Shown in pieces: positions 11,077 through 33,800 of a stretch of DNA of 64,000 nucleotides; within the stretch, counting starts at the first letter, position 1; each line of letters begins with the position of its first letter. The translations under genes and the position numbers were made by a program. The notes beneath the pieces are model-generated. The model saw only the letters and a list, made by a program, of their open reading frames with translations. It ran no database searches and was not told the origin of the DNA. The stretch spans positions 22,253 through 86,252 of the forward strand of contig CAMDWQ010000001.1 in NCBI GenBank assembly GCA_945877765.1, read 5' to 3'. The DNA is from Candidatus Omnitrophota bacterium (GTDB taxonomy: Bacteria > Omnitrophota > Gorgyraeia > 2-02-FULL-51-18).

Positions 11077-12618
11077 TCATCTCTGCCATATATTTCGATC
11101 CAGCGTGCGGTAGTGAATAGCCTCGGAGACATGCGTCGCTTCTATAGTCTCACTGTCCTCTAGATCCGCAATCGTGCGAGCCACCTTGATCGACTTATGG
11201 TACGCCCGCGCTGAAAAACCCAGCTCCTGAATCGCCATTTTTAATAAGTTTTCTCCCTCTTGGGAAATCGCGCAATATTTTTCAAGCTGTCTTGGCTCAA
11301 GCTCCGCATTGGCCGAAATTTTTTCGGAAGTATACCGCTTTCTCTGGAGAACCCTGGCCTTTTCCACTCGTTGACGAATTGCAAGGGACCCCTCCCCTTT
11401 GCTTTTCTGAGTAATTTCTCCCACTTTCAGGCATGGCACCTCCAGCTGGATGTCAATACGATCAAGGAGCGGTCCTGAAATCTTGGACATATAATTTTTG
11501 ATCTGCACCGACGTGCAATTGCATTCCTTTTTGGGATCCGTAAAATACCCGCATGGACAGGGGTTCATCGCGGCTACCAGCATAAACCGAGCCGGAAAGG
11601 TATAGGTAGACGCGGCCCGAGAAATCGTGATCCTTCCCTCTTCCAGAGGCTGGCGAAGCACCTCCAGCGCATTTCTTTTAAATTCTGCAATTTCATCCAG
11701 AAACAAAACCCCGTGATGAGCGAGGCTGACTTCGCCCGGCTTGGGATTGGAACCACCGCCGACCATTGCAACGCCGGAGATGGTATGGTGAGGGTCACGA
11801 AAAGGCCGCGTGGACAAAAGCGCCGATTTCTGGGAAATAAGTCCGACAACGCTATGAATTTTGGTGGTCTCGATCGCTTCGTTGAACGTAATACTTGAGA
11901 GGATTCCGGGAATTCTTTTAGCGAGCATTGTTTTGCCAGCACCCGGGGGGCCAATCATGATGAGGTTGTGACCTCCTGCCGCCGCGATCTCAAGGCCTCG
12001 TTTCGCATGTAACTGTCCTTTGATATCAGAAAAATCAAGATACTTGGGACTGGCCACCGGATCCGGCAAGCTGGTCACAATCTCCTCGGAGGGTTTTAGG
12101 CTAAGCTCTCCTTTTAAAAACTGAACCAGTTGCAAAAGGTGGTTGACCGCATAAACTCGGATACCGCTCACACACAAAGCTTCTTTGGCATTGCTGGACG
12201 GGATGAAAAAATCCTTTTTTTGCGGCTCCTCCAAAATAGCCGCCGCCCGCGGAAGTATTCCTGGCACACCCCGCACCTTTCCGTCGAGAGACAACTCCCC
12301 GCAAAATATTTTCTCGCGGACAGCCTCCTGCCCAATCACCTCATTGGCCACGAGAATACCAATGGCGATCGCCAAATCAAACGCGGACCCCTCTTTTTTG
12401 ATATCGGCAGGCGCCAAATTGACCGTAATTTTTTTGGAAGGAAAAGGAAAGCCGCTATTTTTAATCGCCGCTCTCACGCGGTCCTGGCTTTCACGGCAGG
12501 CTGTATCGGGAAGCCCCACGATATTAAAAGCAGGCAGTCCGCTAGCAATATCTACCTCCACCTCGACATTGTAAGCTTCGATCCCAACAACGGCACTCGT
12601 TAATACCTTTGAAAACAT
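11077..12618 (-). CDS. comM: YifB/ComM family Mg-chelatase-like AAA+ ATPase
   Basis: 513 aa. Lon-protease-like N-domain (GLPDTACRESQDRVRAAIKNSGF), Walker A GPPGAGKTMLA, LFLDEIAEF, and the C-terminal Mg-chelatase ChlI-like domain. Confidence 0.85.
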   Translation of the reverse strand: MFSKVLTSAVVGIEAYNVEVEVDIASGLPAFNIVGLPDTACRESQDRVRAAIKNSGFPFPSKKITVNLAPADIKKEGSAFDLAIAIGILVANEVIGQEAVREKIFCGELSLDGKVRGVPGILPRAAAILEEPQKKDFFIPSSNAKEALCVSGIRVYAVNHLLQLVQFLKGELSLKPSEEIVTSLPDPVASPKYLDFSDIKGQLHAKRGLEIAAAGGHNLIMIGPPGAGKTMLAKRIPGILSSITFNEAIETTKIHSVVGLISQKSALLSTRPFRDPHHTISGVAMVGGGSNPKPGEVSLAHHGVLFLDEIAEFKRNALEVLRQPLEEGRITISRAASTYTFPARFMLVAAMNPCPCGYFTDPKKECNCTSVQIKNYMSKISGPLLDRIDIQLEVPCLKVGEITQKSKGEGSLAIRQRVEKARVLQRKRYTSEKISANAELEPRQLEKYCAISQEGENLLKMAIQELGFSARAYHKSIKVARTIADLEDSETIEATHVSEAIHYRTLDRNIWQR

Positions 12619-13270: not shown

Positions 13271-13496
13271 ACCAGCCTCCTTTGGTTCGACGCGCTTGGC
13301 TTGCTCACCATTCATCCTGAGCAAGGCCGAAGGCCGCGTCGAATGGACTTGTTTTGGGTTTAAACACACGAAAGCATTCGTGCTCTCACCCTACAGGACG
13401 ACAAAGAGGGTCTTTTTCGTCAAAAATTTATTAACATTTTTTTTCGATTAACATCAACGAGCGTCACTCCCAAACAGCCACACAGTGTCACCCATC

Positions 13497-13625
13497 CCGT
13501 CATTCCCGAAAGTTTTAATCGGGAATCAAACCTACCTGTCGTCATTCCCGAAGGCTTCAATCGGGAATCAAACCTATACATGATCCCTGATAATGGATCT
13601 CGGGGATGACATGGGGGGGTGTGGG
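13497..13625 (+). repeat. Dispersed dual-hairpin repeat element, copy A. The first hairpin unit is tandemly duplicated. It ends in a G7 tract.
   Basis: gtcattcccgaaRgYttYaatcgggaatcaaacct occurs twice in tandem at 13497-13533 and 13539-13576. The second hairpin follows: atgatccctgataatggatctcggggatgac, then atgggggggtgtgg. Both hairpins are palindromic, with stems ATTCCCGA/TCGGGAAT and ATCCCYGA/TCGGGGAT. The same element recurs at 16224-16297 (inverted) and 60837-60950. Confidence 0.8.
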
Positions 13626-14462
13626 AGCAAGATAAGCAGTGGCACCGCATCGACGGTTTCTATGCATGACAGCGCAAGTGTTTCAGGGGACATGGATACT
13701 AAATCCAACGTCGATTTTGCGCCTCATCTCAGTTTTTATAGCCCTAGACTTAGCGGTCACGGTCGATCCTCTGGGAATCTTGTAGTAAAAAGTGGTCAGA
13801 CCGTGACGTGGGGTGACCCAAGTTATAGAGGCGGATATCGTGACTGGACTGCCTGCTACGTGGATAATCAGAAATCAGTTGTTATAGAACCCGGTGCCAC
13901 CGTCAACATTGTTGGAAATCTTGTTATACGTGTTGATGCCGTGAGCACTGTCACGGAAGTGAGTTCTGCGGTACTTACGGTTACAGATCCCGCTTTCGTT
14001 ATATGCCCCGGCGCGACCATCAACATCGCAAAAGACGTCGTTTTTAAAATATATGCCGCCGCTGGGGCTGTATCGATAAATTCGTTTATCAACCACAATA
14101 ATGATTCGACAGAAGCCCAAAATTTTCAAGTGGTTGGCTCAATTGACTGCCCCGTGATTGATCTTAGAAATCTCTATGACACCACTCAGGCTGATGGAGG
14201 GCATATGCCAATGCTTGTCACAGCAGCCAACGCCCAAGTGCTGCCTCCCGAAAAAGGTAATATTTACGGCGGGATAGTATGTAAACGCTTCGGTTGGGAT
14301 AATTACACAGAAGATTCAGTGACTGGCGATAGTAGTTCGATACTACGAATTCACTATGACGAAGAACTTAGAAGAACGGGACCTGTGGGTCAAACCGTGT
14401 ATGGAGCAGTACGACCCTGGAACCTTCCCGTCAAACTAGAGTGGGTAAGGGTAGTAGATTAA
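13593..14462 (+). CDS. Hypothetical protein; start uncertain because the annotated ATG lies inside the repeat element
   Basis: A 289-aa ORF with no recognisable family. Ser/Thr/Val-rich segments could indicate a beta-rich or secreted protein, but there is no clear signal peptide. Alternative in-frame starts lie at 13611 (MGGCGSK) and at a later M (MHDSASV). The G7 tract at 13614-13620 falls inside the 5' coding region. Confidence 0.45.
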   Translation: MDLGDDMGGCGSKISSGTASTVSMHDSASVSGDMDTKSNVDFAPHLSFYSPRLSGHGRSSGNLVVKSGQTVTWGDPSYRGGYRDWTACYVDNQKSVVIEPGATVNIVGNLVIRVDAVSTVTEVSSAVLTVTDPAFVICPGATINIAKDVVFKIYAAAGAVSINSFINHNNDSTEAQNFQVVGSIDCPVIDLRNLYDTTQADGGHMPMLVTAANAQVLPPEKGNIYGGIVCKRFGWDNYTEDSVTGDSSSILRIHYDEELRRTGPVGQTVYGAVRPWNLPVKLEWVRVVD

Positions 14463-14482
14463 ACAACACAAAGGAGGCTAAG

Positions 14483-14704
14483 ATGGTACATCTGAGAAAT
14501 AGGTTCGCACTTGCAATAGCGTTGGCGTTTGCTTTTTCGTCCTCGATGATGATCTCTCAAGAAGCAAATGCTGATGAGGAAGCACTTCAAGATTATACCC
14601 AAGAAAGTGAAAATGTCCGGTTCGTCAACCTAGAAGGAAGCCGTGCAACAAAGGATGTTACGCTTAATATCACTGCCGAAGGCACTGAGATTGTGGAAAG
14701 CTAG
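14483..14704 (+). CDS. Small secreted protein (hypothetical, ~73 aa)
   Basis: A strong AAAGGAGG Shine-Dalgarno sits 6 nt before the ATG at 14483. MVHLRNRFALAIALAFAFSSSMMISQEANA is a textbook Sec signal peptide with an AxA cleavage site, followed by an acidic mature peptide. The ORF-track start at 14441 is upstream of the SD and less likely. Confidence 0.55.
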   Translation: MVHLRNRFALAIALAFAFSSSMMISQEANADEEALQDYTQESENVRFVNLEGSRATKDVTLNITAEGTEIVES

Positions 14705-14928
14705 CAAACAGTGTCGGGCGAAGTCAAAGCGTAAACATGCCCTAGAGGTGTGGAGAACTAGCAAAGGTTAGCGGTTAAGGGGTCAAATCTCCCCTTGACT
14801 GCATGCCTGATAAAAGTTCCGGGGACACTATACTTAATTCAGTTCCATGCTCTCTATTTTTTCCTCCGCTCTAGCTTCGATTGACTTATTCAAATAGTCA
14901 TTTAATTTAGTTTGACTTTTTTAAATGA

Positions 14929-16179
14929 ATGCTGTATATTTTCAGCATGATGCAGAGGGCACTTTATTCGATTGTATTTTCACAGACTTGGGGCCGGCAG
15001 ATGCGTTTTATCACGGGCCCAAGACAGTCAGGCAAGACGACGCTGGCCAAACAGAAGCTTGAGATAGCAGGCTCGCCCGAGCTTTATTTTTTGTGGGATT
15101 TGCGCGAGGTGCGTAGGCGCTACAAAGAAAATCAGCTTTTTTTTACCGAAAACCACCCCCCCAGCAAAACTCCTCAGTGGGTTTGTTTTGATGAGATTCA
15201 TAAAATCCCGAAATGGAAAAATGGGCTAAAAGCAATTTTTGACGCAAGTCAAGAGGATTACCGGTTTATTGTCACGGGCTCCGCCAAGCTTGAGATTTTT
15301 AAAAAAGCGGGCGACAGCCTTTCCGGAAGATATTTTACGTTTCATCTTTTTCCTCTGGCCCTCTCGGAGTTATCAGGGTCCAAATCCGTTTTGACGGTTG
15401 AGGATTTAGCGCCTAAAACGGCCCATGACTGGATACAACAAATCCTTGATTTTCATGAACTAAAAAATACCCACCAGAATTTATCCGATTTGCTTGAGTA
15501 CGGCGGATTCCCCGAACCATTTTTAAAACAGTCCCATGCTTTCCATATGAAATGGAGAAAAGACTATGCGGATACAGTGATCCGTGAGGATATCGGAGCC
15601 CTGACAAGGATTATAGACAAGGAATACCTCTATGACCTGTATCAACTCCTGCCTGAAATGGTGGGAAGTCACATTTCCGAGTCATCCATTGCCTCTCATT
15701 TACAAATCAGCGGCCCGACAGTTAAAAGCTATCTCCGGCGGCTTGAGGATTTTTATTTGACGTTTAGAGTGCGCCCTTACTTTAAAAACATCAAACGGGC
15801 GCTGTTAAAAACTCCCAAGTGTTATCTTTATGATTACACAATGATCGGTGACGCAGGCAAGCGGTTTGAGAATTTCGTGGCTATAGAACTCATGAGCCGC
15901 ATTCATTTATGGATGGATGCTGGTAGTGAGGACTACTCGCTTTTTTACGTTCGCAACAAGGAAGGTCAAGAAACAGATTTTCTTATTTTAAAAAATTCAA
16001 AACCGTGGCTACTTCTAGAGGCTAAATTGTCTGATTCGAGAATTGACGGACATCATTACAAAACCCAAGCCATGCTGGGGGGCATCCCCTTGGTTCAGCT
16101 CTGCCGTAAAGACGGTGTTTGCCGAATGGAGGGCAAAAATATTTATCAGATTTCCGCCGCGCGGTTTTTTTCTTCTTAA
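14929..16179 (+). CDS. AAA+ ATPase, DUF4143-containing (COG1373-like) ATP-binding protein
   Basis: 416 aa. The Walker A ITGPRQSGKTTLAKQ near the N-terminus, FDEIHKIPKW (Walker B / sensor region), and a C-terminal region typical of the DUF4143 family. The true start may be at MMQRAL or MRFITG. Confidence 0.65.
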   Translation: MLYIFSMMQRALYSIVFSQTWGRQMRFITGPRQSGKTTLAKQKLEIAGSPELYFLWDLREVRRRYKENQLFFTENHPPSKTPQWVCFDEIHKIPKWKNGLKAIFDASQEDYRFIVTGSAKLEIFKKAGDSLSGRYFTFHLFPLALSELSGSKSVLTVEDLAPKTAHDWIQQILDFHELKNTHQNLSDLLEYGGFPEPFLKQSHAFHMKWRKDYADTVIREDIGALTRIIDKEYLYDLYQLLPEMVGSHISESSIASHLQISGPTVKSYLRRLEDFYLTFRVRPYFKNIKRALLKTPKCYLYDYTMIGDAGKRFENFVAIELMSRIHLWMDAGSEDYSLFYVRNKEGQETDFLILKNSKPWLLLEAKLSDSRIDGHHYKTQAMLGGIPLVQLCRKDGVCRMEGKNIYQISAARFFSS

Positions 16180-16223
16180 CCCAATTCAGGGAACCCCAGA
16201 ATTGACGATTAACTGTAATGGCG

Positions 16224-16297
16224 CGTCATCCCCGAGATTTCTTATCGGGGATCATACCGAGGTTTGATTCCCGATTAAAGCCTTCGGGAATGACAAC
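16224..16297 (-). repeat. Dispersed dual-hairpin repeat element, copy B, inverted relative to copies A and C
   Basis: The reverse complement reads ccgttgtcattcccgaaggctttaatcgggaatcaaacctcggtatgatccccgataagaaatctcggggatgacgcgc. It is near-identical to copies A and C apart from the variable linker and loop nucleotides. It lies in the convergent gap between the DUF4143 ATPase (+) and comEC (-). Confidence 0.8.
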
Positions 16298-16317
16298 GGG
16301 GTGGCACCAGCCTAAGA

Positions 16318-18633
16318 TTAAGCTTGGACGAAGATAGTAACCGTAAGATTTGTCCCATCAGAAACAACGCGGACGGCTCCCTGCTGATCCGTTCTAAAAA
16401 TTTGATTGCCTTTGATTGAAGAAAGTAGCTCCAGCGTTTCTTTACGCGGATGACCGTAAGAGTTTCTCTGGCCGACGCTGATAACACTGACCCTCGGAGC
16501 AACGCTTTGAAAAAATAGCTCTGCCTCTTTTCTTGGTTTAGCCCCATGATGAGGCACTTTCAAGACATCCGCGTGCAAATCAAGCCCGGACTCCATTAGG
16601 CTTCTCATGGCAGGATCCTCAATGTCTCCGGTCAATAGAAATGATGTCTTTCCATACGTAATTTTTAAAATAAGACAGTCATTGTTGATATTTTTGGAGG
16701 CCTCTTTCCCGGCCGGGGGACTAAAGATGTCCACTCGGACATCCGAAAATCCTTTCAAGCTAGATCCCCTTGCGGCCTGGCAATAATCAATCATTTTGCT
16801 GCGAATATTCTTTTGCAACAACTGGTAGATTCCCGAAAAATAAACTTTTTTGGCATCAATCACGTGAGCCACTGAAAAATCCTCCAGGAGTGCCGACATG
16901 CCTCCGATATGGTCTTCCTGAGGATGGCTGATCACTAGCGCATCCAATGAGCGGATTCCCCTAGACTTAAGATACGGCCCCACCACGTGACGGCCTTTGT
17001 CGTGCGGCTGGCCTTTGCCTGCGTCGATCAGCAGGTTCCCGCCCTTAGGAAATTCAAAATAAATAGCATCCCCTTGTCCCACATCAAGCACCGTCATCGC
17101 AAAGCGGCGGTCAAAATACCTTAGCGCCTCTTGAAAAAGAAAGACATTCATCGAAAAAATGATTAATAGGAGAGCTCGAAAAAATCGACTTTTTATTTTT
17201 TTTGAAAAAAGTAAATAGCTTAATCCTGCGATTAAAACAATTTCCACCGCCAAGTCCATTTTGCCGACAATCACTACGCTAAACGGCAATCGACTAATCC
17301 ATGAAAGCAAGCACGTAAAAATAAGCATCATTGATTTTAAAATCCACGGGATAAAAAATAAGAATGGGGGCACCCACCAAAAGCATAAAAAATAAACTAA
17401 GCCGCAAAAAAATAAGCAAAATGACAGCGGCACCGCAACCATGTTGGCCGCCAGCGACAGAGGGGTTACCATATAAAAATATTGCACCGTCAAAGGCAAT
17501 GTCGTCAATGTCGCCACAAAAGATACCCAGAAGAGCTCTTGGGCGCCGAAAGCAGATTTCTCCCAAAACGTCATTTTTTCATTGGGGAAGAGTTCTTTTT
17601 TGGGCATAAAAATTGGCATAAAAAGCGCCATTCCTGCCACGGCCGCAAAGGAAAGCTGGAAACCAATATCAAAAATATTTTTAGGATTCGAGGCTAGAAT
17701 CAGAAGAGCCGCCAATCCCAGTGAGTTTAAGAGATCTTGCTTTCGCCCCAGCAATTTAGCGACAATGAGAACCGTTGCCATGACAGAGGCGCGCACTAAA
17801 GGCGCTTGCCACCCCACCATCACGCAGTAGGCCCAAATAACCGCCAGCACAATCACCCACCGAATTTTTTTAGGTATCCTAAACGGGGATAAAATAAACA
17901 GGAGGGCCGCCGTTAAAAAACCGACATTAAACCCGCTAACCGCCAGAAGATGCATCGTGCCAGTGCGGACAAAAAGACTTTCAAATTCGTCAGACAATTC
18001 CCTTTTCTCACCCAGTAGTAGCGCTTTAAGAAAGGCGGCGTCATCCAGCTTGAATTCTTGTGCTAATTTCTGAGATAGAAAATTTCGAAACTTGATCGCG
18101 TATTCGGTAATAAAATGGGGCCGATGCCCCACCACCAACGTGCCGGCGCTATCTTTTTTGGCAAAAAAAAGCCCTCGTATTCCCTGTCGGTCAAGGTAGG
18201 CGCGCGCATCAAAGCCGCCGGGATTTCGCGGGCCATCAGGAAGAGCCAATTTTCCGGATAGACTAATCTGATCCCCATAACGCAACCACACCGCTGGATC
18301 TCTGACAGTGACTCTCACCTTCCCGCGTAAAGTTTTGAAGGCATCGCCTTCCCAGTCAACAGAGTCACACTCCAAGACAAACGAATCATATTTCTGATGG
18401 TAGTAATTTACTTTCCTTTCAACCTCAGAAATAATTCTTCCGCGAATAAGAACAGATTCCGGATCTTGCCGCGCTATCCAATAAACATCATTTTTGGGGA
18501 CTTGGTACAAATAGGCGGGAACAAAATAGCCGGTAAGTAAAATGAGGGTAGAAAATAGAATCGCCGCATAAAAAAGCGGACGACGGCCTATTTCGCGAAA
18601 TTGGAGCTTGCTTAGAATATCAAGCGCTGGCAT
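16318..18633 (-). CDS. comEC: DNA internalization-related competence protein ComEC/Rec2 (with C-terminal metallo-beta-lactamase domain)
   Basis: 771 aa. A polytopic competence-domain core, then MBL-fold motifs DVGQGDAIYFEFPKGGNLLIDAG, ISHPQEDHIGG and VPHHGA. Confidence 0.85.
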   Translation of the reverse strand: MPALDILSKLQFREIGRRPLFYAAILFSTLILLTGYFVPAYLYQVPKNDVYWIARQDPESVLIRGRIISEVERKVNYYHQKYDSFVLECDSVDWEGDAFKTLRGKVRVTVRDPAVWLRYGDQISLSGKLALPDGPRNPGGFDARAYLDRQGIRGLFFAKKDSAGTLVVGHRPHFITEYAIKFRNFLSQKLAQEFKLDDAAFLKALLLGEKRELSDEFESLFVRTGTMHLLAVSGFNVGFLTAALLFILSPFRIPKKIRWVIVLAVIWAYCVMVGWQAPLVRASVMATVLIVAKLLGRKQDLLNSLGLAALLILASNPKNIFDIGFQLSFAAVAGMALFMPIFMPKKELFPNEKMTFWEKSAFGAQELFWVSFVATLTTLPLTVQYFYMVTPLSLAANMVAVPLSFCLFFCGLVYFLCFWWVPPFLFFIPWILKSMMLIFTCLLSWISRLPFSVVIVGKMDLAVEIVLIAGLSYLLFSKKIKSRFFRALLLIIFSMNVFLFQEALRYFDRRFAMTVLDVGQGDAIYFEFPKGGNLLIDAGKGQPHDKGRHVVGPYLKSRGIRSLDALVISHPQEDHIGGMSALLEDFSVAHVIDAKKVYFSGIYQLLQKNIRSKMIDYCQAARGSSLKGFSDVRVDIFSPPAGKEASKNINNDCLILKITYGKTSFLLTGDIEDPAMRSLMESGLDLHADVLKVPHHGAKPRKEAELFFQSVAPRVSVISVGQRNSYGHPRKETLELLSSIKGNQIFRTDQQGAVRVVSDGTNLTVTIFVQA

Positions 18634-22112: not shown

Positions 22113-22188
22113 GGGCCTGTAGCTCAGTTGGTAGAGCGCCTCCATGGCATGGAGGAGGCCAGCGGTTCGAGACCGCTCAGGTCCACCA
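22113..22188 (+). tRNA. tRNA-Ala (anticodon GGC)
   Basis: Cloverleaf GGGCCTGTAGCTCAGTTGGTAGAGCGCC(TCCATGGCATGGAGG)...GGTTCGAGACCGCTCAGGTCCACCA. The anticodon stem is CCTCC/GGAGG with loop ATGGCAT. The G3:U70 Ala identity pair is present, as is the TPsiC arm GGTTCGAGACC, and CCA is encoded. Confidence 0.85.
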
Positions 22189-22207
22189 AATTCTTTATTA
22201 CCCTCTT

Positions 22208-22291
22208 GCCGAAGTGGCGGAACTGGCATACGCGTCGGTCTCAAAATCCGATCCCCTTACGGGGTTGTGGGTTCAACTCCCACCTTCGGTA
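22208..22291 (+). tRNA. tRNA-Leu (anticodon CAA), class II with a long variable arm
   Basis: GCCGAAGTGGCGGAACTGGCATACGCGTCGGTCTCAAAATCCGAT...GGGTTCAACTCCCACCTTCGGTA closely resembles E. coli tRNA-Leu(CAA) (GCCGAAGTGGCGAAATCGG...TTCAAAATC). The anticodon loop CTCAAAA has U33 and A37. A long extra arm CCCCTTACGGGG is present, and no CCA is encoded. Confidence 0.75.
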
Positions 22292-22300
22292 CTCTTTTTT

Positions 22301-24807: not shown

Positions 24808-27800
24808 TTACGCCGCCTGCAATGCCATTTTGATCATCAAGCTATAGGTCTGTATCATTTCCTCGACCGCAAGCTTCATGACGGGTGGGAGGGCAAATTG
24901 CTGGAGGATTTTTAAGTCTTCCAGAAGACCCTTTAAGGCATTGATGAAATCAGGCAGGTCTTTGGGTTTAAATTCACGTCCTAATTGTTTTTGGTAGGCT
25001 TGGTAGAATTGGACAAAATAAGGATTGCTGATGCTTAGCTCTTCCAGACGGGCTTCGAAGCTAGCGAGAGTGAGAGTGGCGGGATTAAGTACGCCTCTTT
25101 CGCCAAGATCAAGAAGATAGAGAAAGCGTGTCTTGCTATTGGGCTGGTGTCTTCTGGTAGATGAGGTGACATAGACTCGCTCTGCTTTTTGATAGGTTAC
25201 TTGTAGTTCACTAAAATTTAGAACCATGAGATCTTTTTCTGTGGGGTAAAGCCTCTTTGCCTCTTTAAGCATCGCGCGGGCCTGATGACCCACGACGACA
25301 TACCTGACAAATTTGCCCCCGGGAGTGCGTCTTTCATTGTGAAGCTGGGCCACTAGAAGCTGGATGGCTAATTGAGTTACGTTTCCTTGGGGAAGCACGG
25401 CATTGGTGTTTAAAATGACCACTGCGGGCTCATTGATGAAGGATTCGGGCACATTCGCATAGAGCGTGCGGGCTTCGCGGGCGGCTTCTTCCATGATGAG
25501 CCTATAGTCGGCCAGCGACATGGTGGCGGTGGTTTGGTTGCCTTTGCGCCTTATTTTGATTTTTCTAGCGCCAATGGCTATGCCCCTGTCGGCCAAGCCA
25601 TAAAGAATTGCCTTTCCATCATCCCGGAAGACTATTTGAATGACGGAGGAGCCGATGGCGATTTGTTTATTTTCATGGACGTTTTGGGTGGTAATGACTT
25701 GGGCGATGAAGGTAATGACTTCGCCTTTTTGAATATTCACCACGGGATGGCCTTGGGTTAGCTCTAAGTTGAGTGGTCTGGGACGCCGAGCAGGGACTCT
25801 GGAAGTGGGAACGCGTTCTAGGGTTGTGGTGGCGAGGCGGGCGGCATTGGGCTTCGCCAGTCTCGCGCCATCCAACACTGTACCCCCCGTACTGTTTTTT
25901 TCTCTGATCACGTGGGCTGCGGGACTCCCAATAATATTCTTCCCCCGCTCAATGGATTCGCGAATGGTTGTAATCGGTCGGACCTGTAGAACAACAATTC
26001 GGTCATCTGCGTCCAAAGACCACTCCATGTCGATCTGAGTCCCAAAATATTCAGATAGCTTGTAAACCACTTCGGCAACCGCTTGAAGTTGTTGTTCATT
26101 GAGTGCTGGCTCAAGAGCTTGTGCGTTAGGTTCCACCTTATAGCCTCCCTGCGGCCCCAGATCTAGCAGAACCTGTTCGGTTTTAACACCTACATGAGAG
26201 TCAAGAAGTTCATATCTTCCCGAAGCGCTTGTTGTTTTTGAAAATAGATACGAATCCGGATCCTTGACAGTTTGATCCACCAGCCCTTTGGCTAACCCAT
26301 GGGCCGCATCCACTCGTATGTGATCGGCTCTCTGTTGGGCAGGATCAGCGCTGAAAGCAACGCCGGACGCTTTTGGGTTAATCATCTCATCCACCAAAAT
26401 ACTCTCAGCCCCGGATAACCAAACATCGACAACAGCTCTTGAAAGGGCCTGAATTCCGAATACGTTAAGTTTGGTCTCCTTCATTCCCGCCATCGCTTCA
26501 TCAACGCTATCTTCTTTCAATCCCGAAGAGCGCACAGCAACCGCCCCAAGCACTTTCATAGAATTCCCGATGGAACGAGAAACATCACTTGTTTCATACT
26601 TAAGTAGCAACAACTCCACTGAATCTCGCAGACTTAAAATTAAGCCATCGATAGAATGAAGCTCCTGGCTTCTTTGAAGATTTTGCTTAAACTTTAAAAT
26701 TTTAGTCTTAACTTCTGTTTTAAATTTAACTGACGTTCTTTCGTCAATGGCTATCAACCTCTCAAGATTGTTTAATTGCTTCACTGTCAAATCGCGGTAG
26801 GCAAAAGCTAGGTTGGCTTGAAGCTTAAGATCAATGCCTTTGCTTTCTTCGATTTTTTCTTGCAAGGCAGCGGAGATCTTCCAAGATTTTTCAGCTAGAT
26901 TTCCGGTATCGATTAAAGCATTTAATGATTGGTTTGCCTTTGACGTTAGTTCAAAAATATCGGCCGGGCCTTTCGCGTCTCTCACCTTGTCTACAAAACC
27001 ACTAATGGCCTGGTGGATATCAATCCTAAGATCCGCGGAAGTCTCTTCATCTGTTTTAATTAATTCCAGAATACCTGAAAAAATCGTATTCAACTGCCGC
27101 TGCCAATCATTGGCATATTCATCAATCCCTGTCATGCCCTCAAGAGAATTTAGTTCTTCAGGGTGCTCGCGAACCCTCCAAAGAAAATACTCAGTTGGCT
27201 GAATGACGAATCCTTCGGGAGTCGCGACTTGCACCGAGGAATCTATCAAGCCCCTTTCTTGAAGTTGTTTTACCGCGTAGGTTGTCTCGGCAGAATTACT
27301 ACCTTTCCCCCCTGCGATGGGCCTTGAAAAACGGTCTTTTAAATTTTCTTTCCAGACAACACCGCGGCCTTGAAGTTCTTTGATTTCGTCTTCGCGCGCT
27401 TTTTTGAGAGCGTCAATTTTAAGTTTTATTACCAAGATTTTTTCTTTGATGGTGGAGTCGCCTTCCTCACCGGTCATACCGGCAAGCTCTAACTTATTCC
27501 AAAAACTTAGAAGCACCGGCAGTTCAGATCCGCTTAACTCGACGACTGCACTTTCAACCTCAGCCGATATCTCTTTTCTGGCCGCACCAAGCCATTCCCG
27601 GCCCTTTTCGATCATCTCTGCCCTGGAGGATTGCAGCATCATCGCGGTAAATGGGTGCTTCCAATCTCCGTTTGCCGCCAGCATCGTCCGGTCAAGACGC
27701 TCTGCTTGCTTCATTAGTTTATCGGCTTCCAAAAATACTTGCTCAAAATCGTATCGTCTGGCATATTTTTTTTGTTCTATATATTGATGAAATTTTTTCA

Positions 27801-30800
27801 AATCTGCCTGAAATTGGTCGATCAATTCTCCCGCCTGACTTCTCACAAATTCCAAAATTGTGCTTCTTATGACTGGGTTTTCTGAAAGTTGGGTCAATAA
27901 GGACTCGATGCTATCGGACGGAAGTACCGCGCCTCCCAAAATTTGATCCAACAGCGCTCTCACCAGGTTCTGATTTGAGATCCTAGAAATAATATTCCCC
28001 AGAATATTCACGTCTTTGGGTAGAATCTCATAGGATGCTTTCGTTTCCATTCTTTCCTTCCACATCAAGTACTCCGTATACTTTATGACCGTTTCACCAC
28101 TCAAGTCATCGGCTCCCGCAATAAAATAAAGGGTGCCTTGATTAGCGTCTAAATAGACCAAATCTCCATCATGAACCTCACAGGTAGTTTGTTTTGCGTC
28201 AGCTATCGCATGAAATACTATTTCTTTTCCACCAACCTCTATCTTCATCTCTGTTGTATCGGCGGTATAAGTCTTAAAGCGCAGGACTTGGTTATGCACT
28301 GAAGCTCCATTAAAAATAACAGCGGGCTTTCGATTTTCACGCGCCCGTATAGCCGCATGAGATAATGAGCCGCCTGTAGTAATCGCAACTCCGTTTGCGG
28401 CGGCAATGCTCGGATCATCCTCATTGTCGGTATAGTCGGCAATCAAAATTCCGTTTTTAAACTCGTCCGCACTTCTTCCTGTTTGCTTAAATCGGGCAAA
28501 ACCGATCGCCTTGCCAAGATTCAAACGCACTCCACCCAAAGAAACTGCGCTGATACCACGCCTTTGATTTGGTCTTTCCAATAATTGCTTTTTTTTAAAT
28601 GGTCCCGTCATACGATTTAATAGATGCTCATTAGAAATAGCAGAAAAAATACCCCGTGCCCCGTCAGGACTATTGGCTGCTCCAGCCAAACGAGCCCCGC
28701 TCATCTGGACGGCAAGCGACTCAAACCATTCCCGAAATGCGCTAGTGGAGGCAAAGCCTTGCGGCAACAAGAGCTCTTCTAAGTCATAGGGACTAAGCTT
28801 GTTATTAACTAATTCTCTTTTCCGGAATAAATCATATCTCCGTTGATTCATAAAAAATTCTCCCAAAATTGCCGTACCCAGAACAAACTGGGAAGATTTC
28901 GTGTCTTTCAAGACATAAAACGTGATCTGATCTCCTAAAGCAGCAAGCTTCAATTCTTCGACAAGATAAGGACCGACTTCTCCGATGGTCGTGCGAGAAC
29001 AAAAAGATTGGAGTGATCGAGCAATCGCCGCCACCTGACGCATGTAAATAATCTGAAGTTGGTCGGCTTTGTAGGCGGCCTCGATTAGCCGAGCGACTGG
29101 GAAGTTACGAGCCGAAGCTTCTTGGTAAGCAGCATCAAATTTATAATTCCCATCATCAATCACAACTAACGCTCCTCTAGAAATGAGAGTCTGGATGCCG
29201 TGACTGATAAAATCCATCATCCTTTGACCGCTTGGCATACCATCAGGCACTTCTATCCCAAGAGCCACGGCCAGTGCTTCTACTTGTTTGACAGCGGCCG
29301 GCAGTGGCGTCGGCACCATCACCGAATCTTTATCGCTTCGCAAGAGATAACCATTGGCGACGAATTCAGAAGTTAGGTCCGAAGCATTTACATGGGGGGA
29401 GCGATTAATAGCGAGGTCAAGATCGAGAGTTGAAGTAACCACTTGTACTGCAAAATTCAGCTTCTCGGGAAGATCCGCTATAGAGGATGCGCCATGATCT
29501 TTATCAAAAACTGCTTCCATATGATATCCATCCCTGCTGACCATAAAACCAGCCGCTTCAAACGCATCACAAATACTTCTAAAACGCGTGCTGTTACCAG
29601 GCTCATAGATTTTCTCGATATTATCCATATAGCTCACCAAAATTCGGCCCTCCTCCTGGACAGGCAGAAGCGAAAAATGGATGGCCGCGCTATGAAGACC
29701 CAGCTTAAGACCGATCAACGCTGTATTTTCATCCGCCATGACAAGAGCGTTGGAGGGATCGAAAAAACGTGAATTCTTATGCCTTAATTGATTCAGCGAA
29801 AAAGCCTGGGTAACAGCAAGAACCGCTATTGAGTGCTCTTGCTGTGGTTTTTGTCGAGCGTCGAGATATTTGACATTGACCTGGGTCCTCGAGTCAGCAG
29901 AGCTGACCATACACGTAGACACTCTCTGGCTCCCACCGGAGGGCATAACACCTCCCAGATTTCTCACACCTTTTTGATGGACAATGTTGATTAGTTCGGC
30001 GAAGGAAACGGCTTCATCACTAATCGGCGTTCCACTACCGATAAAAGCTATGTAGTCACCCAAATTGATACTCCTAACTCGGGTCTCGTAACCCTCGGCA
30101 GGGGCAACCGTCAGCCGAGAGGATTTTTTAGAATCAAACAACTGCATCATTGCTTCAATGGATGGTTGGATAGCGTGTGCTTTTCCAGGAAGCGACCGAA
30201 GACTGTCCATAGCACCCTCTACTTCATGCCGGATATTTAAAAATAACTTTGCGATGGACCTCCCCCCTTGAAGATCTGACGATTCCTTGGCAATAGAATC
30301 CAAACTTTTCCCAGGAGGCTGCCCCTTGAAAAGCACCTCGTAAGACAGCACCATCAACTGCATGGTATCTAACAAAGCTAAAATATCCTCCGGAGACTTG
30401 TTGGGCTTGCCAAGTTTTTGCAGGACCTCAGAATTTAGTTTTTCAAAATCGCGGTACATGGCCATGACTCGTTGCGCCTCAGGGTTAGCCGTCGGGGTAT
30501 CTACCATTGGCACAAAAGCGTATTCGACGGGTATAACACGTCCCGTATGGTAGTCAATTTCCCGATGTAAAAAAGAACTCAATTGTTTGAAATCTGGTTT
30601 TCCATAAACCTGTGGAACGGGAACATTTCTATTTAACTTGCCGTAAATTTCTGAAAGAGCCAAGAGGGCTTGTTCGCTTCCGTTGTTAACTTTTGTCTTT
30701 AGAATTAGATAGATTTCAGCTTGTTGAGGAGAATTTAAAAAGACGTAGGCGGCGCCTAGGGCTAGGAGGACGACTCCATTCCCGCTGTTAACTTGTGCCT

Positions 30801-33800
30801 TTAGAATTGGATAGATTGCAGATTGTTGGGAGAGAGTTAAAGAGGCGTAGATAGGGCCTAGGGCCCGGAGGGCATATTGATTTCCGTTTTCAGCTTGTGT
30901 CTTTAGAATCGGGTAGACTTCAGATTGTTGGGAAGAAGTTAGAGAAGCGTAGGCGGAGCCTAGGGCTTGGAGGGCAATTTCCTGCCCAGTTTTAGCCTCT
31001 GTCCTGAAGAGCGTATAGATTTCGGATTGTTGGGAAGAAGTTAGAGAAGCGTAGGCGGAGCCTAGGGCTAGGAGGGCGCGCCCACTTCCACTTTCAGCTT
31101 TTGTCTTTAGAATTATAAAGATTTCAGATTGTTGGGAAAGGGTTAAAGAGGCGTAGGCGAGTCCTAGGGCCCGGAGGACTACTTCGCTTCCTTTATCAAC
31201 TATTGTCTTTAGAGTTGCATAGATGTCGACTTGTTGGGCAGAGGTTAAAGAGGCGTAGGCGAGTCCTAGGTCCCAGAGGGCGAATTCATTTTCTTCGTCT
31301 GCTCCTGTCTTTAAAGTTGCGTAGATGTCAAGTTGTTGGGCAGAGGTTAAAGAGGTGTAGGCAGAGCCCAGAGCTAGGAGCGACGAACTGTATTTAAGAT
31401 CAACGGCATTTGTTTTCAAAAAGTCATAAAGCTTTTGAAAATCCGCCATCACTTCATCAGGATTTGAGATCTGTGGGGTTGCTTTGGTTTCCACAGGTGT
31501 GACCGGGGTCATGGTATTTAACTTGCCGTAAATCTTTGAAAGGGCCCAGAGGGCATCTCCATCACCTTTGTCAGCTTTTGTTCTTAGAATTGTGTAAATA
31601 TCAGATTGTTGGGAAGAAGTTAAAGAGGTATAGGCGAATCCTAGGGCTACGTCGGCGCCAGAATTTCCTTTTTCAGCTCCTGTCTTTAAAATTGGGTAGA
31701 TTTCAGATTGTTGCGAAGTAGTTAAAGAGGCGTAAGCGGCTCCTAGGGCTCGAAGGGCAGTTCCATAACCTTTACCAGCTTCTGTCTTTAGAATTGCATA
31801 GATTTCAGATTTTTGAGAAGGGGTTAAAGAGGCGTGGGCGAAGCCTAGGGCTTCGTGGGAAAATACACTTTTATTGTCAGCTTCTGTTTTTAGAATTGGA
31901 TAGATTTCGGATTGTTGGGAAAATGCTAAAGAGGCGTAGGCAAGGCCTAGGGCCCAGAAGGCATCTCCACTTCCACTGCCAGCTTCTGTCTTTAGAATTG
32001 GATAGATTTCGGATTGTTGGGAAGGAGTTAAAGAAGCGTAGGCGGAGCCTAGGGCTAGGAGGGCGTCTCCATTTCCTTTATCAACTTCTGCCTTTAGAAT
32101 TGGATAGATTTCGGATTGTTGGAAAAGAGTTAATGAAGCGTAGGCGGGGCCCATGGCTAGGACGGCATCTTTATTTTCTTTGTCAGCTTTTGTCTTTAGA
32201 ATCAGGTAGACTTCGGATTTTTGGGAAGGGGTTAATGAGGCGTAGGCGCAGGCTATTCCAGTGCCAGGGTTTGCCTTTAAAATTGGATAGATTTCGGATT
32301 GTTGGAAAAGAGTTAAAGAAGCGTAGGCGGAGCCTAGGGCATACAGGCCATTTGAATTTCCATTTTTAGCTTGCGTCTTTAGAATCAGATAGACTTCAGA
32401 TTTTTGGGAAGGAGTTAAAGAAGTGTAGGCGGAGCCTAGGGCTAGGAGGGCGTGTCCATTTCCGTCTTCAACAGCAGCTTTTTTCAAAGAGTCATAATGC
32501 TTTTGAAAATCCTCCCTCACTTCATCAGGGTTTGAGATCTGTGGGGTTGCTTTGGTTTCCACAGGTGCAGCCGAGGTTATGGTATCTAGCTGGCCGCCAA
32601 TCCCTGAAAGAGCCAAGAGAGTTTGTTCATATCCACTGTCAGCTAGTTGCTTTAGAATCGGAAAGGCTTCGGATTGTTGGGAAGGGGTTAAAGAGGTGTA
32701 GACAGATCTTAGGGCTTCGAGAGCATTTAAATTTCCTTTTTCAGCTTGTGTCTTTAGAATTAGGTAGACTTCAGATTGTTGAGAAAGAGTTAAAGATGCG
32801 TAGGCGGAGCCTAGGGCTTGGAGATTGGAAGCACTGGGCGGTTTCATGATGACAGACGGCCGAATCATCTTATAAAGCCCCCAAATAGTTGCACAAGTGG
32901 CAAACAAAACAGCGATAGAAAAGAACATGTAGTTGGCAACTGTCATTAAAACATTTTCTTCTTTTGGCTTTTCCAGTTTGGCTTCTTTGTCGGATGTAAT
33001 ATTTTCATTGGGCTGAGAATTCGATTCTTTATCAGACTGAATATTTTTTCCGGTTTGAGGATAGCTGACTATCTGATCCACCGCTTCTCCTTGCGCTTTG
33101 GTATCGCCAAAATACTTTTTAATGCTGGGGGAAGGCTTGGTTTTTTCATCGGCTGACGGTTGAGATGAATCCTGCTGCGCTAAAGATTGGGACGCAAGCG
33201 GCACAGAGAAGCCCAGCAAAACAGCACCCGATAAAATCAGGTGCCTAAACATTTCTCCGGCTGAATTTTTAGGGTGGTTTGTCTTCGCAACACGTGCGTC
33301 GCCATTCGACGATCCCCCATTATCTGCCAGCCGGGCAGCATTCATCGAATAGACTGCTCCCGCCAAAATATCTTTTTTGATATTTTGAGCTTTTGCCGTA
33401 GCAGCCATCCTACCCTGTCCCATAACATAGGCAGTCATATCCATTTTAGCGGCCACAGTGCTTACCACTGGCTGTTTTACATTCACGGATATCTGACCCA
33501 AAAGTATTTCCTCATACCTCTTAATATTCGTCTCATGCGTCACCTCGGGAATAATAGAGATGTAGGAAATGTTCCTTTGTTTTAAAAGATACTTAAGATT
33601 GGGTGTGTGATAGCCGCCGGTGATGAGGATAGCGCCTGCCTGCCGGCTAGGCAGGGATTTTGAATCTTGGATGGCGGATATATTTTTCAGAAAAACTTTA
33701 TCTCTCTCATAAGTTAGCTCATAGAATTTTTTACAGAGATTCGCCATATCTGTGAAATCTTCCTTAAGAAAAATCGCTTTTTCATAATGACCTTTTAAAA

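Follow-up and report, generated by a model that had tools for sequence, protein, structure and literature searches.

Hairpin repeats at a structurally variable locus beside comEC in an Omnitrophota bacterium are probable variant relatives of the Neisseria NTS/dRS3 repeat

The 64,000-nucleotide stretch of DNA from Candidatus Omnitrophota bacterium that we analyzed (GenBank assembly GCA_945877765.1, contig CAMDWQ010000001.1, positions 22,253 to 86,252; hereafter 'the window') contains a hairpin-forming repeat at three intergenic sites, designated copies A, B, and C. Copies A and B lie close together beside the gene encoding ComEC; from left to right, the order is a minus-strand SpoVG gene, copy A, plus-strand open reading frames (ORFs) of 289 and 73 aa, a plus-strand ATPase gene, copy B, and the minus-strand ComEC gene (structural variant V1, which is also spanned by the independent assemblies L176, L177, and L006). 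An initial annotation, made from the letters of this DNA, interpreted copies A and B as elements that had mobilized or delimited a gene cassette or, alternatively, as a structured-RNA or terminator family. Our analysis leads to a different reading: the repeats are probably Ssn-related hairpin motifs, that is, variant relatives of a Neisseria repeat that is recognized in single-stranded DNA (ssDNA) by a small GIY-YIG nuclease.

The repeat unit is 30 nt long (consensus GTCAT[T/C]CCCGA-N9-TCGGG[A/G]ATC(A)) and forms a hairpin with an 8-bp stem, whose arms are AT[T/C]CCCGA and TCGGG[A/G]AT, and a 9-nt loop. It occurs in two forms, the T-type (ATTCCCGA) and the C-type (ATCCCCGA). The window contains seven units, arranged as inverted doublets in copies B and C and as a triplet in copy A; the bit scores given below are those of the covariance model described in the next paragraph.

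13499-13527, plus strand: copy A unit 1, T-type hairpin (GTCATTCCCGA-AAGTTTTAA-TCGGGAATC), 60 bits
13541-13569, plus strand: copy A unit 2, T-type, a direct repeat of unit 1 at 42-nt spacing, 56 bits
13582-13610, minus strand: copy A unit 3, C-type, inverted, with one stem mismatch (TCAGGG), 49 bits
13611-13626, plus strand: G-rich tail of copy A (ATGGGGGGGTGTGGGA), partly common to copy C
16225-16253, plus strand: copy B unit 1, C-type hairpin, 51 bits
16266-16294, minus strand: copy B unit 2, T-type hairpin, inverted, 62 bits
60843-60871, plus strand: copy C unit 1, T-type hairpin, 58 bits
60891-60919, minus strand: copy C unit 2, C-type hairpin, inverted, 58 bits

All three sites are present where the initial annotation had placed them, and each contains the two related hairpins that it described; these are, however, two forms of one unit, so that each 'dual hairpin' consists of one T-type and one C-type unit in mutually inverted orientation. 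Copies A and B have opposite orientations, as had been noted (76 nt, 86% complementary). The two stem patterns have four and two matches in the window, compared with 0.00 expected from 100 dinucleotide shuffles. A covariance model trained on 14 units from the source organism identifies exactly the seven units in the window (49-62 bits); because the next match scores below 10 bits, we conclude that the window contains no decayed copies. The boundaries of the elements are exactly GTCAT...ATGAC, and their flanks are unrelated except for a weak C-rich/G-rich tract. When each site is folded as ssDNA, it forms either two local hairpins or one long hairpin. In the 14 source-organism units 99.1% of the stem cells are paired, compared with 18-62% when the partner arm is slid; at the free stem positions of the 84 matches listed in a genome scan (described below), the combinations are T.A in 34, C.G in 49, T.G in one, and C.A in none. 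This compensatory change (T.A or C.G in 83/84) points to selection for the hairpin.

The window is part of a 96-kb metagenome contig (ENA ERZ27280294), and a further 9 kb was added on either side. Exact-protein look-up also located other assemblies of this population, including the metagenome-assembled genome (MAG) GCA_947444795.1 from NCBI (contig L009). The source-organism sequence examined in this way totals 92 kb (the 64-kb window and 28 kb more) and contains 14 units at six sites, every one of which is intergenic. The three sites beyond the window are the following.

L172 6458-6527: site D, a doublet, on the same contig to the right of the window
L172 6917-7029: site E, a T,T,C' triplet like that of copy A, on the same contig to the right of the window
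MAG contig L009, between the LptG and AdoHcyase genes: the sixth site

The tandem duplication of the first hairpin that had been singled out in copy A is therefore real but not private to it, because the same triplet recurs at site E. The doublet at D and the triplet at E, in direct orientation 2.4-2.9 kb past the right end of the window, have an 86-aa membrane ORF between them (L172 6566-6826). Short contigs from other samples start or stop in the repeat (L173 does so at both ends), the behavior expected of a high-copy repeat in assembly.

We scanned one genome per species with the pattern GTCATYCCCGA-N9-TCGGGRATCA and obtained matches in at least 78 stretches, from MAGs labeled as at least 10 different major bacterial groups; the labels among the matches listed include Omnitrophota, Planctomycetia, Nitrospirota, Ignavibacteria, Elusimicrobia, Bacteroidota, Desulfobulbaceae, Gracilibacteria, Calditrichaceae, and Colwellia, among others. 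Among the same matches, 16 contigs belong to the MAG CAYGIT01 and eight to CAZBIH01 ('Planctomycetia'); the latter contains the same T- plus C-type doublet and spacer as are found in the window. In many other genomes the partner unit is GATTCCCGC...GCGGGAATGAC, which resembles the core of the Neisseria dRS3 repeat. Thus, the part of the initial annotation that proposed a dispersed family resembling repetitive extragenic palindromic (REP) sequences is borne out, by the 14 units at six sites in the source organism and by the stretches in other MAGs. When the ORFs of at least 70 aa in the 78 listed loci were clustered, no protein family was found to recur beside the unit except unrelated housekeeping families. 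At L034 (2613-3447), L035, L053, and L075, other hairpins adjoin the CCCGA units; these retain the GTCAT...ATC frame with very different stems (e.g., GTCATTGCGAGCG...CGAAGCAATC and GTCATTCTGAGGAGC...GAAGAATC) and may be further motif classes outside the published search pattern that is discussed below.

The frame of the unit is that of a repeat with a known partner enzyme. The NTS (Neisseria Transformation Sequence; CGTCATTCCCGCGMAVGCGGGAATCYRG) contains dRS3 and has a variant, NTSvar (CGTCATACTCGGGNNNNNCCCGAGTATC) (PMC11893778); the same study also defines a degenerate 'Ssn-related motif' (SRM) (Chenal et al., Nat Commun 2025; PMC11893778). The repeats typically flank ssnA genes, and SsnA, a 94-aa single-domain GIY-YIG protein, binds the hairpin as ssDNA only and on one strand only, cuts a few nucleotides upstream of the hairpin, and reduces transformation by NTS-containing DNA (PMC11893778). 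Binding depends most on the C that directly follows the palindrome, and cleavage on the three nucleotides that precede it; strand-specific binding and cleavage of ssDNA are known only for the Neisseria and Wolbachia enzymes (PMC11893778). The unit in the window has the same frame as NTS and NTSvar, that is, (C)GTC, a palindrome that begins AT[T/C]CCCG, and then C. GTCAT and ATC are invariant in all 14 source-organism units, including the GTC before and the C after the palindrome, and these are the positions most important in Neisseria for cleavage and binding, respectively.

The likeness to NTS and the SRMs includes the oriented hairpin, an imperfect palindrome within the 20-50 nt range of the motif, with GTC on its 5' and C on its 3' side; the (C)GTC plus AT...AT plus C frame; the TCCCG/CGGGA stem core; and the multi-copy, mostly intergenic occurrence (in the 92 kb), the presence in many phyla, and the inward flanking of ssn genes that is described below. 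The differences are in the stem closure (GA/TC here, GCG/CGC in the published motifs), in the loop (9 nt here, 3-4 nt there), and in the organization, the units here forming heterotypic (T-type plus C-type) inverted doublets and T,T,C' triplets; also, biochemistry exists for the Neisseria system whereas the present variant is known from its sequence. With dRS3 and the neisserial intergenic mosaic elements (NIMEs) the unit shares the ATTCCC...GGGAAT palindrome core, although these hexamers are separated by N13 here and by N8 in dRS3 (ATTCCC-N8-GGGAAT). Like them it adjoins strain-variable genes, here represented by three structural variants and by a 3.6% divergent tract limited to 13670-14652; unlike the NIMEs it has no RS elements between its units, and its host is an uncultured environmental bacterium.

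The second line of evidence is the association of the repeat with ssn genes. Two loci from the genome scan (L044 and L084) contain genes for 95-aa GIY-YIG proteins, each flanked by literal NTS units, and in both the long-loop variant is located 1-2 kb from these genes. With the two encoded proteins as queries we fetched 80 metagenomic ssn loci (94-98-aa GIY-YIG protein). A GTC-AT...AT-C hairpin is found within 200 nt of ssn in 65/80 loci, and on both sides in 45/80; within 250 nt of ssn, the published SRM pattern matches in 49/80 and the literal Neisseria NTS core in 28/80. The SRM and NTS matches near ssn mostly point inward, upstream units on the plus strand and downstream units on the minus strand; this reproduces the result of Chenal et al. 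and identifies these genes as Ssn homologues in the sense of that study. The proteins match PF01541, and those of 94 aa have Y6, Y17, and E64, which correspond in number to the residues mutated in the 94-aa SsnA of N. meningitidis; the assignment to Ssn, a family of cd10448-type proteins, is based on the Pfam match, the length of 94-98 aa, these three residues, and the literal NTS flanking. At E<=1e-20, a profile search of 5.8 billion proteins yielded at least 7994 members, so that the family is very large.

The window-type unit itself directly flanks ssn (within 250 nt) in nine of the 80 loci, so that the flanking of Ssn genes that characterizes SRMs is found for this variant in loci of organisms other than the source. 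Its density is 0.40/kb within 250 nt of ssn and 0.02/kb elsewhere in the loci, a 20-fold enrichment. In L090 the arrangement is doublet-ssn-doublet, in L131 T-type units are located on both sides of ssn, and in L136 a T,T,C' triplet as in copy A is located upstream of ssn.

Several observations weigh against this assignment. The published SRM search pattern, HGTCWYN(0-2)YYVSBRHN(0-5)WNVSBRGN(0-2)RNCYNB, has no match in the window, L172, or L009; it misses the unit because of the 9-nt loop and the GA/TC closure of the CCCGA stem, and it is a search tool, not a biological definition. A phmmer search of all ORFs in the window and the 28 kb more of the source organism identified no ssn (GIY-YIG) gene; the association test drew on metagenomic loci of other organisms, and 71/80 of these lack the window-type variant. 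The Neisseria enzyme is inactive once the sequence of the palindrome is altered (PMC11893778), so putative cleavage of the present variant would need its own co-evolved enzyme. Weighing these points against the shared frame and the enrichment at ssn genes, we assign a probability of roughly three in four, or slightly more, to the conclusion that the repeats in the window are Ssn-related hairpin motifs and variant relatives of the Neisseria NTS/dRS3 repeat.

The locus between and around copies A and B is structurally variable, and its composition bears on the mechanism and on the alternatives. The features are as follows.

11077-12618: ComM-like Mg-chelatase ATPase gene
13627-14462, plus strand: 3' remnant of a 496-aa gene (the 289-aa ORF), equivalent to residues 220-496 of the full-length allele in L003
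14483-14704, plus strand: 73-aa ORF whose N-terminus resembles a signal peptide, common to the three locus variants
14745-14755: breakpoint where variant V2 (L009, L175) diverges, without a repeat unit
14929-16179, plus strand: AAA_14 plus DUF4143 ATPase gene, in V1 and V3 and absent at this place in V2
16318-18633, minus strand: ComEC gene

The three plus-strand ORFs that had been described between copies A and B are present; the 289-aa 'hypothetical protein' is a truncated remnant whose start is derived from the repeat. Unit 3 of copy A contains its ATG (13593), and the repeat encodes its first 12 residues; the ORF is 93% identical to residues 220-496 of the 496-aa protein encoded by L003 and lacks the N-terminal hydrophobic helix of the full-length protein. 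The ORF calls that run through copy A (a 76-aa minus-strand ORF, 13420-13650, and the start of the 289-aa ORF, 13593-13626) are likely annotation artifacts of the repeat. The ATPase gene does not belong to the repeat system. Apart from these ORFs, the plus strand near the locus carries only the genes for tRNA-Ala(GGC) and tRNA-Leu(CAA) (22113-22292).

Variant V2, represented by two independent assemblies (L009, from the NCBI MAG, and L175), has the minus-strand SpoVG gene, copy A, and the 289-aa and 73-aa ORFs; from ~14750 onward it contains unrelated minus-strand genes, and the ATPase gene and copy B are absent there. The replacement set (L009 2005-4519, L175 2325-2765) encodes a 146-aa ORF, SocA_Panacea, a 76-aa ORF, an S24 peptidase, and HhH-GPD, and it looks like a toxin-antitoxin or prophage-remnant module. 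Variant V3 (L003) has, on the plus strand, an N_methyl gene, the intact 496-aa gene, and the 73-aa and ATPase genes, followed by copy B and the minus-strand ComEC gene; it has no copy A, and it is also indicated by a member of the 496-aa cluster on a 16.9-kb contig. L003 aligns to the window only from 13627 rightward, that is, from the exact end of copy A with its G-rich tail, and its 496-aa ORF continues in frame and uninterrupted through 13626/13627. Thus, one edge of copy A marks a rearrangement that truncated a gene, and no repeat is present at the second variant breakpoint. The 37 differences that separate L003 from the window are all located in 13670-14652, and 14653-17114 is identical; L009 differs from the window at four positions (14603, 14604, 14651, and 14652) that are the last four of the L003 differences, which implies either mosaic exchange between the locus variants or a strain-mixed assembly.

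The N_methyl (205 aa) and 496-aa genes in L003 (114-2234) encode a pseudopilin-like pair, the second member with an N-terminal hydrophobic helix, located upstream of the ATPase and near ComEC; they may be a competence-pilus minor-pilin cluster that was lost from the strain in the window. The locus as a whole is reminiscent of the strain-variable regions beside dRS3/NTS in Neisseria. Elsewhere in the window, a 3422-aa minus-strand ORF (24808-35076) includes a 102-nt (34-aa) repeat in at least 16 tandem copies at ~30630-32880; the Pfam families on record for its called gene are PEP-utilizers and PPDK_N.

If the repeats are Ssn-related motifs, the following mechanism can be proposed. When the DNA is single-stranded, the unit folds into its 8-bp stem and 9-nt loop, framed by the 5' GTC and the 3' C. 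A cognate Ssn (~95 aa, single-domain GIY-YIG), presumably encoded elsewhere in the genome, would by analogy with the characterized system bind the unit on the strand that reads GTC...C and nick the ssDNA a few nucleotides on its 5' side. Because the T-type and C-type units form inverted doublets, a correctly oriented unit would be present on both strands and each site might be cleavable on either. Cleavage of incoming or exposed ssDNA near the repeats would shorten the available homology and so could modulate homologous recombination; locally raised genome plasticity, for which the three structural variants of the locus may be compared, would be a likely consequence. Uptake of ssDNA is plausible because the window encodes ComEC and the ComM-like ATPase; V3 has, in addition, the pseudopilin-like cluster.

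A further proposal builds on the same nuclease. The T/C doublets and T,T,C' triplets could be non-autonomous units, resembling the REP doublets known as REPINs, that are copied whole by Ssn acting as a domesticated GIY-YIG 'transposase', with copy A a recent and still polymorphic event in a natural population; we consider this unlikely, although it deserves more weight than the remaining explanations. The recurrence of the T,T,C' composite at A, E, and L136 suggests that composites are copied as units. According to this proposal, either the arrival of copy A or a break beside it would have removed the 5' 219 codons of the pilin-cluster gene that a co-occurring strain retains intact.

The alternatives that dispense with Ssn are improbable to different degrees. 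The first is a role in RNA, in which the units would act on the upstream gene as 3'-end stabilizers, attenuators, or terminators. Co-directional genes surround sites C, D, and E, all of which have the C-type unit first relative to transcription, and copy B is located between convergent genes; copy A, however, is between divergent gene starts, no unit is followed by a T-run, and none was called in a terminator scan. At the gathering threshold an Rfam search of the window identified only the two tRNAs, so that no Rfam family matches the units and the structured-RNA or terminator family offered in the initial annotation finds no support; with an E-value threshold, the only further match was RAGATH-23 (E=0.25), away from the units. 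That match (14718-14808, plus strand; 22.8 bits, where the gathering score is 92.6) overlaps the V1/V2 breakpoint and is best attributed to chance. The characterized relatives of the repeat are bound as ssDNA, not RNA (PMC11893778), and a role in RNA leaves the tight flanking of ssn unexplained. We therefore consider this explanation improbable as the primary function, although the consistent orientation at the three co-directional sites makes a minor RNA-level effect possible.

The second alternative is that the doublets are REPINs in the strict sense, copied by a domesticated HUH transposase (a REP-associated tyrosine transposase, RAYT, of the IS200/IS605-like Y1 type). The similarity to REP sequences, bacterial interspersed mosaic elements (BIMEs), and REPINs is considerable: imperfect palindromes of ~30 nt, inverted doublets that can form either a pair of local hairpins or a single long one, dispersed and multi-copy intergenic occurrence, composite triplets that recur at different sites, and an associated small nuclease gene that is flanked by the repeats. 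The tetranucleotide GT[AG]G is reportedly the typical head of REP sequences, and the head of the present unit is GTCA instead; in addition, the gene that is demonstrably flanked by the unit encodes a GIY-YIG nuclease, not an HUH Y1 transposase. In a crude motif test, no ORF with HUH...Y..NP was found in the 1.08 Mb of fetched loci; thus, neither the GT[AG]G head nor a REP-flanked RAYT gene is seen, and we consider service by a RAYT very improbable.

Slightly less probable still is the possibility that the units are attachment or target sites of a site-specific recombinase or an element of the IS110 type (insertion sequence, IS), the rearrangement at copy A being the product of the recombinase. 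dRS3 is a documented target of this kind, for the phage recombinase of the filamentous prophages of Neisseria (PMC11893778), and the edge of copy A is also the site of one variant junction; however, none of the six sites adjoins a recombinase, IS, or prophage gene, no protein family recurs beside the unit in the 78 listed loci, and such use would be secondary, leaving the origin and number of the repeats unexplained.

The least probable of the explanations is the cassette, in which inverted copies A and B, resembling miniature inverted-repeat transposable elements (MITEs), would be the ends of a composite mobile element that carries the three plus-strand genes. Copies A and B do bracket, in inverted orientation, the only multi-gene plus-strand block, whose GC content is slightly below that of the sequence just outside (0.43-0.48, compared with ~0.47-0.53); so small a shift toward AT is uninformative. 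Against the cassette, the comparison with other assemblies (L003 without copy A; L009 and L175 without the ATPase gene or copy B) places the breaks at 13626/13627 and ~14750, inside the block and not at both repeats, so the segment from A to B is not one moving unit; the plus-strand block of V3 is longer, with N_methyl and the intact 496-aa gene and no copy A, whereas the 289-aa ORF is a truncated remnant. No target-site duplications are found at the six sites, the elements ending exactly at their GTCAT...ATGAC termini; these ends could pass for terminal inverted repeats, but a MITE or composite transposon would be expected to show, in addition, the duplications and the same bounded segment at other sites, and the segment from A to B is not inherited as a unit. 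No transposase is present, and the second doublet pair on the contig flanks a gene in direct, not inverted, orientation. Integron attC sites and CRISPR arrays (clustered regularly interspaced short palindromic repeats) were dropped on anatomy (irregular spacing, inverted units, and no integrase or cas genes in the window).

The repeat-nuclease system to which we assign these repeats is already known (published in 2025; PMC11893778). New here are a widespread variant that the published pattern misses, the heterotypic doublet and triplet organization, and a polymorphic, gene-truncating junction at the edge of a repeat. Because the SRM pattern misses at least one widespread variant, repeat censuses based on it are underestimates; the variant is common, nearly letter for letter, to Omnitrophota, Planctomycetia, Nitrospirota, Ignavibacteria, Elusimicrobia, Bacteroidota, Desulfobulbia, and others. 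The ssn genes of L090, L131, and L136, together with their flanking units, are new candidate pairs of nuclease and target site from which ssDNA tools might be developed. Annotators should regard the '289-aa hypothetical protein' as a remnant with a start codon supplied by the repeat. For the organism, the locus provides a natural case in which the edge of a repeat coincides with a gene-truncating rearrangement that is polymorphic in one population and located beside competence genes. If the proposal that Ssn copies REPIN-like composites is true, the locus would offer the first evidence at the population level for SRM repeats that move and remodel genes, beyond marking sites for the restriction of ssDNA.

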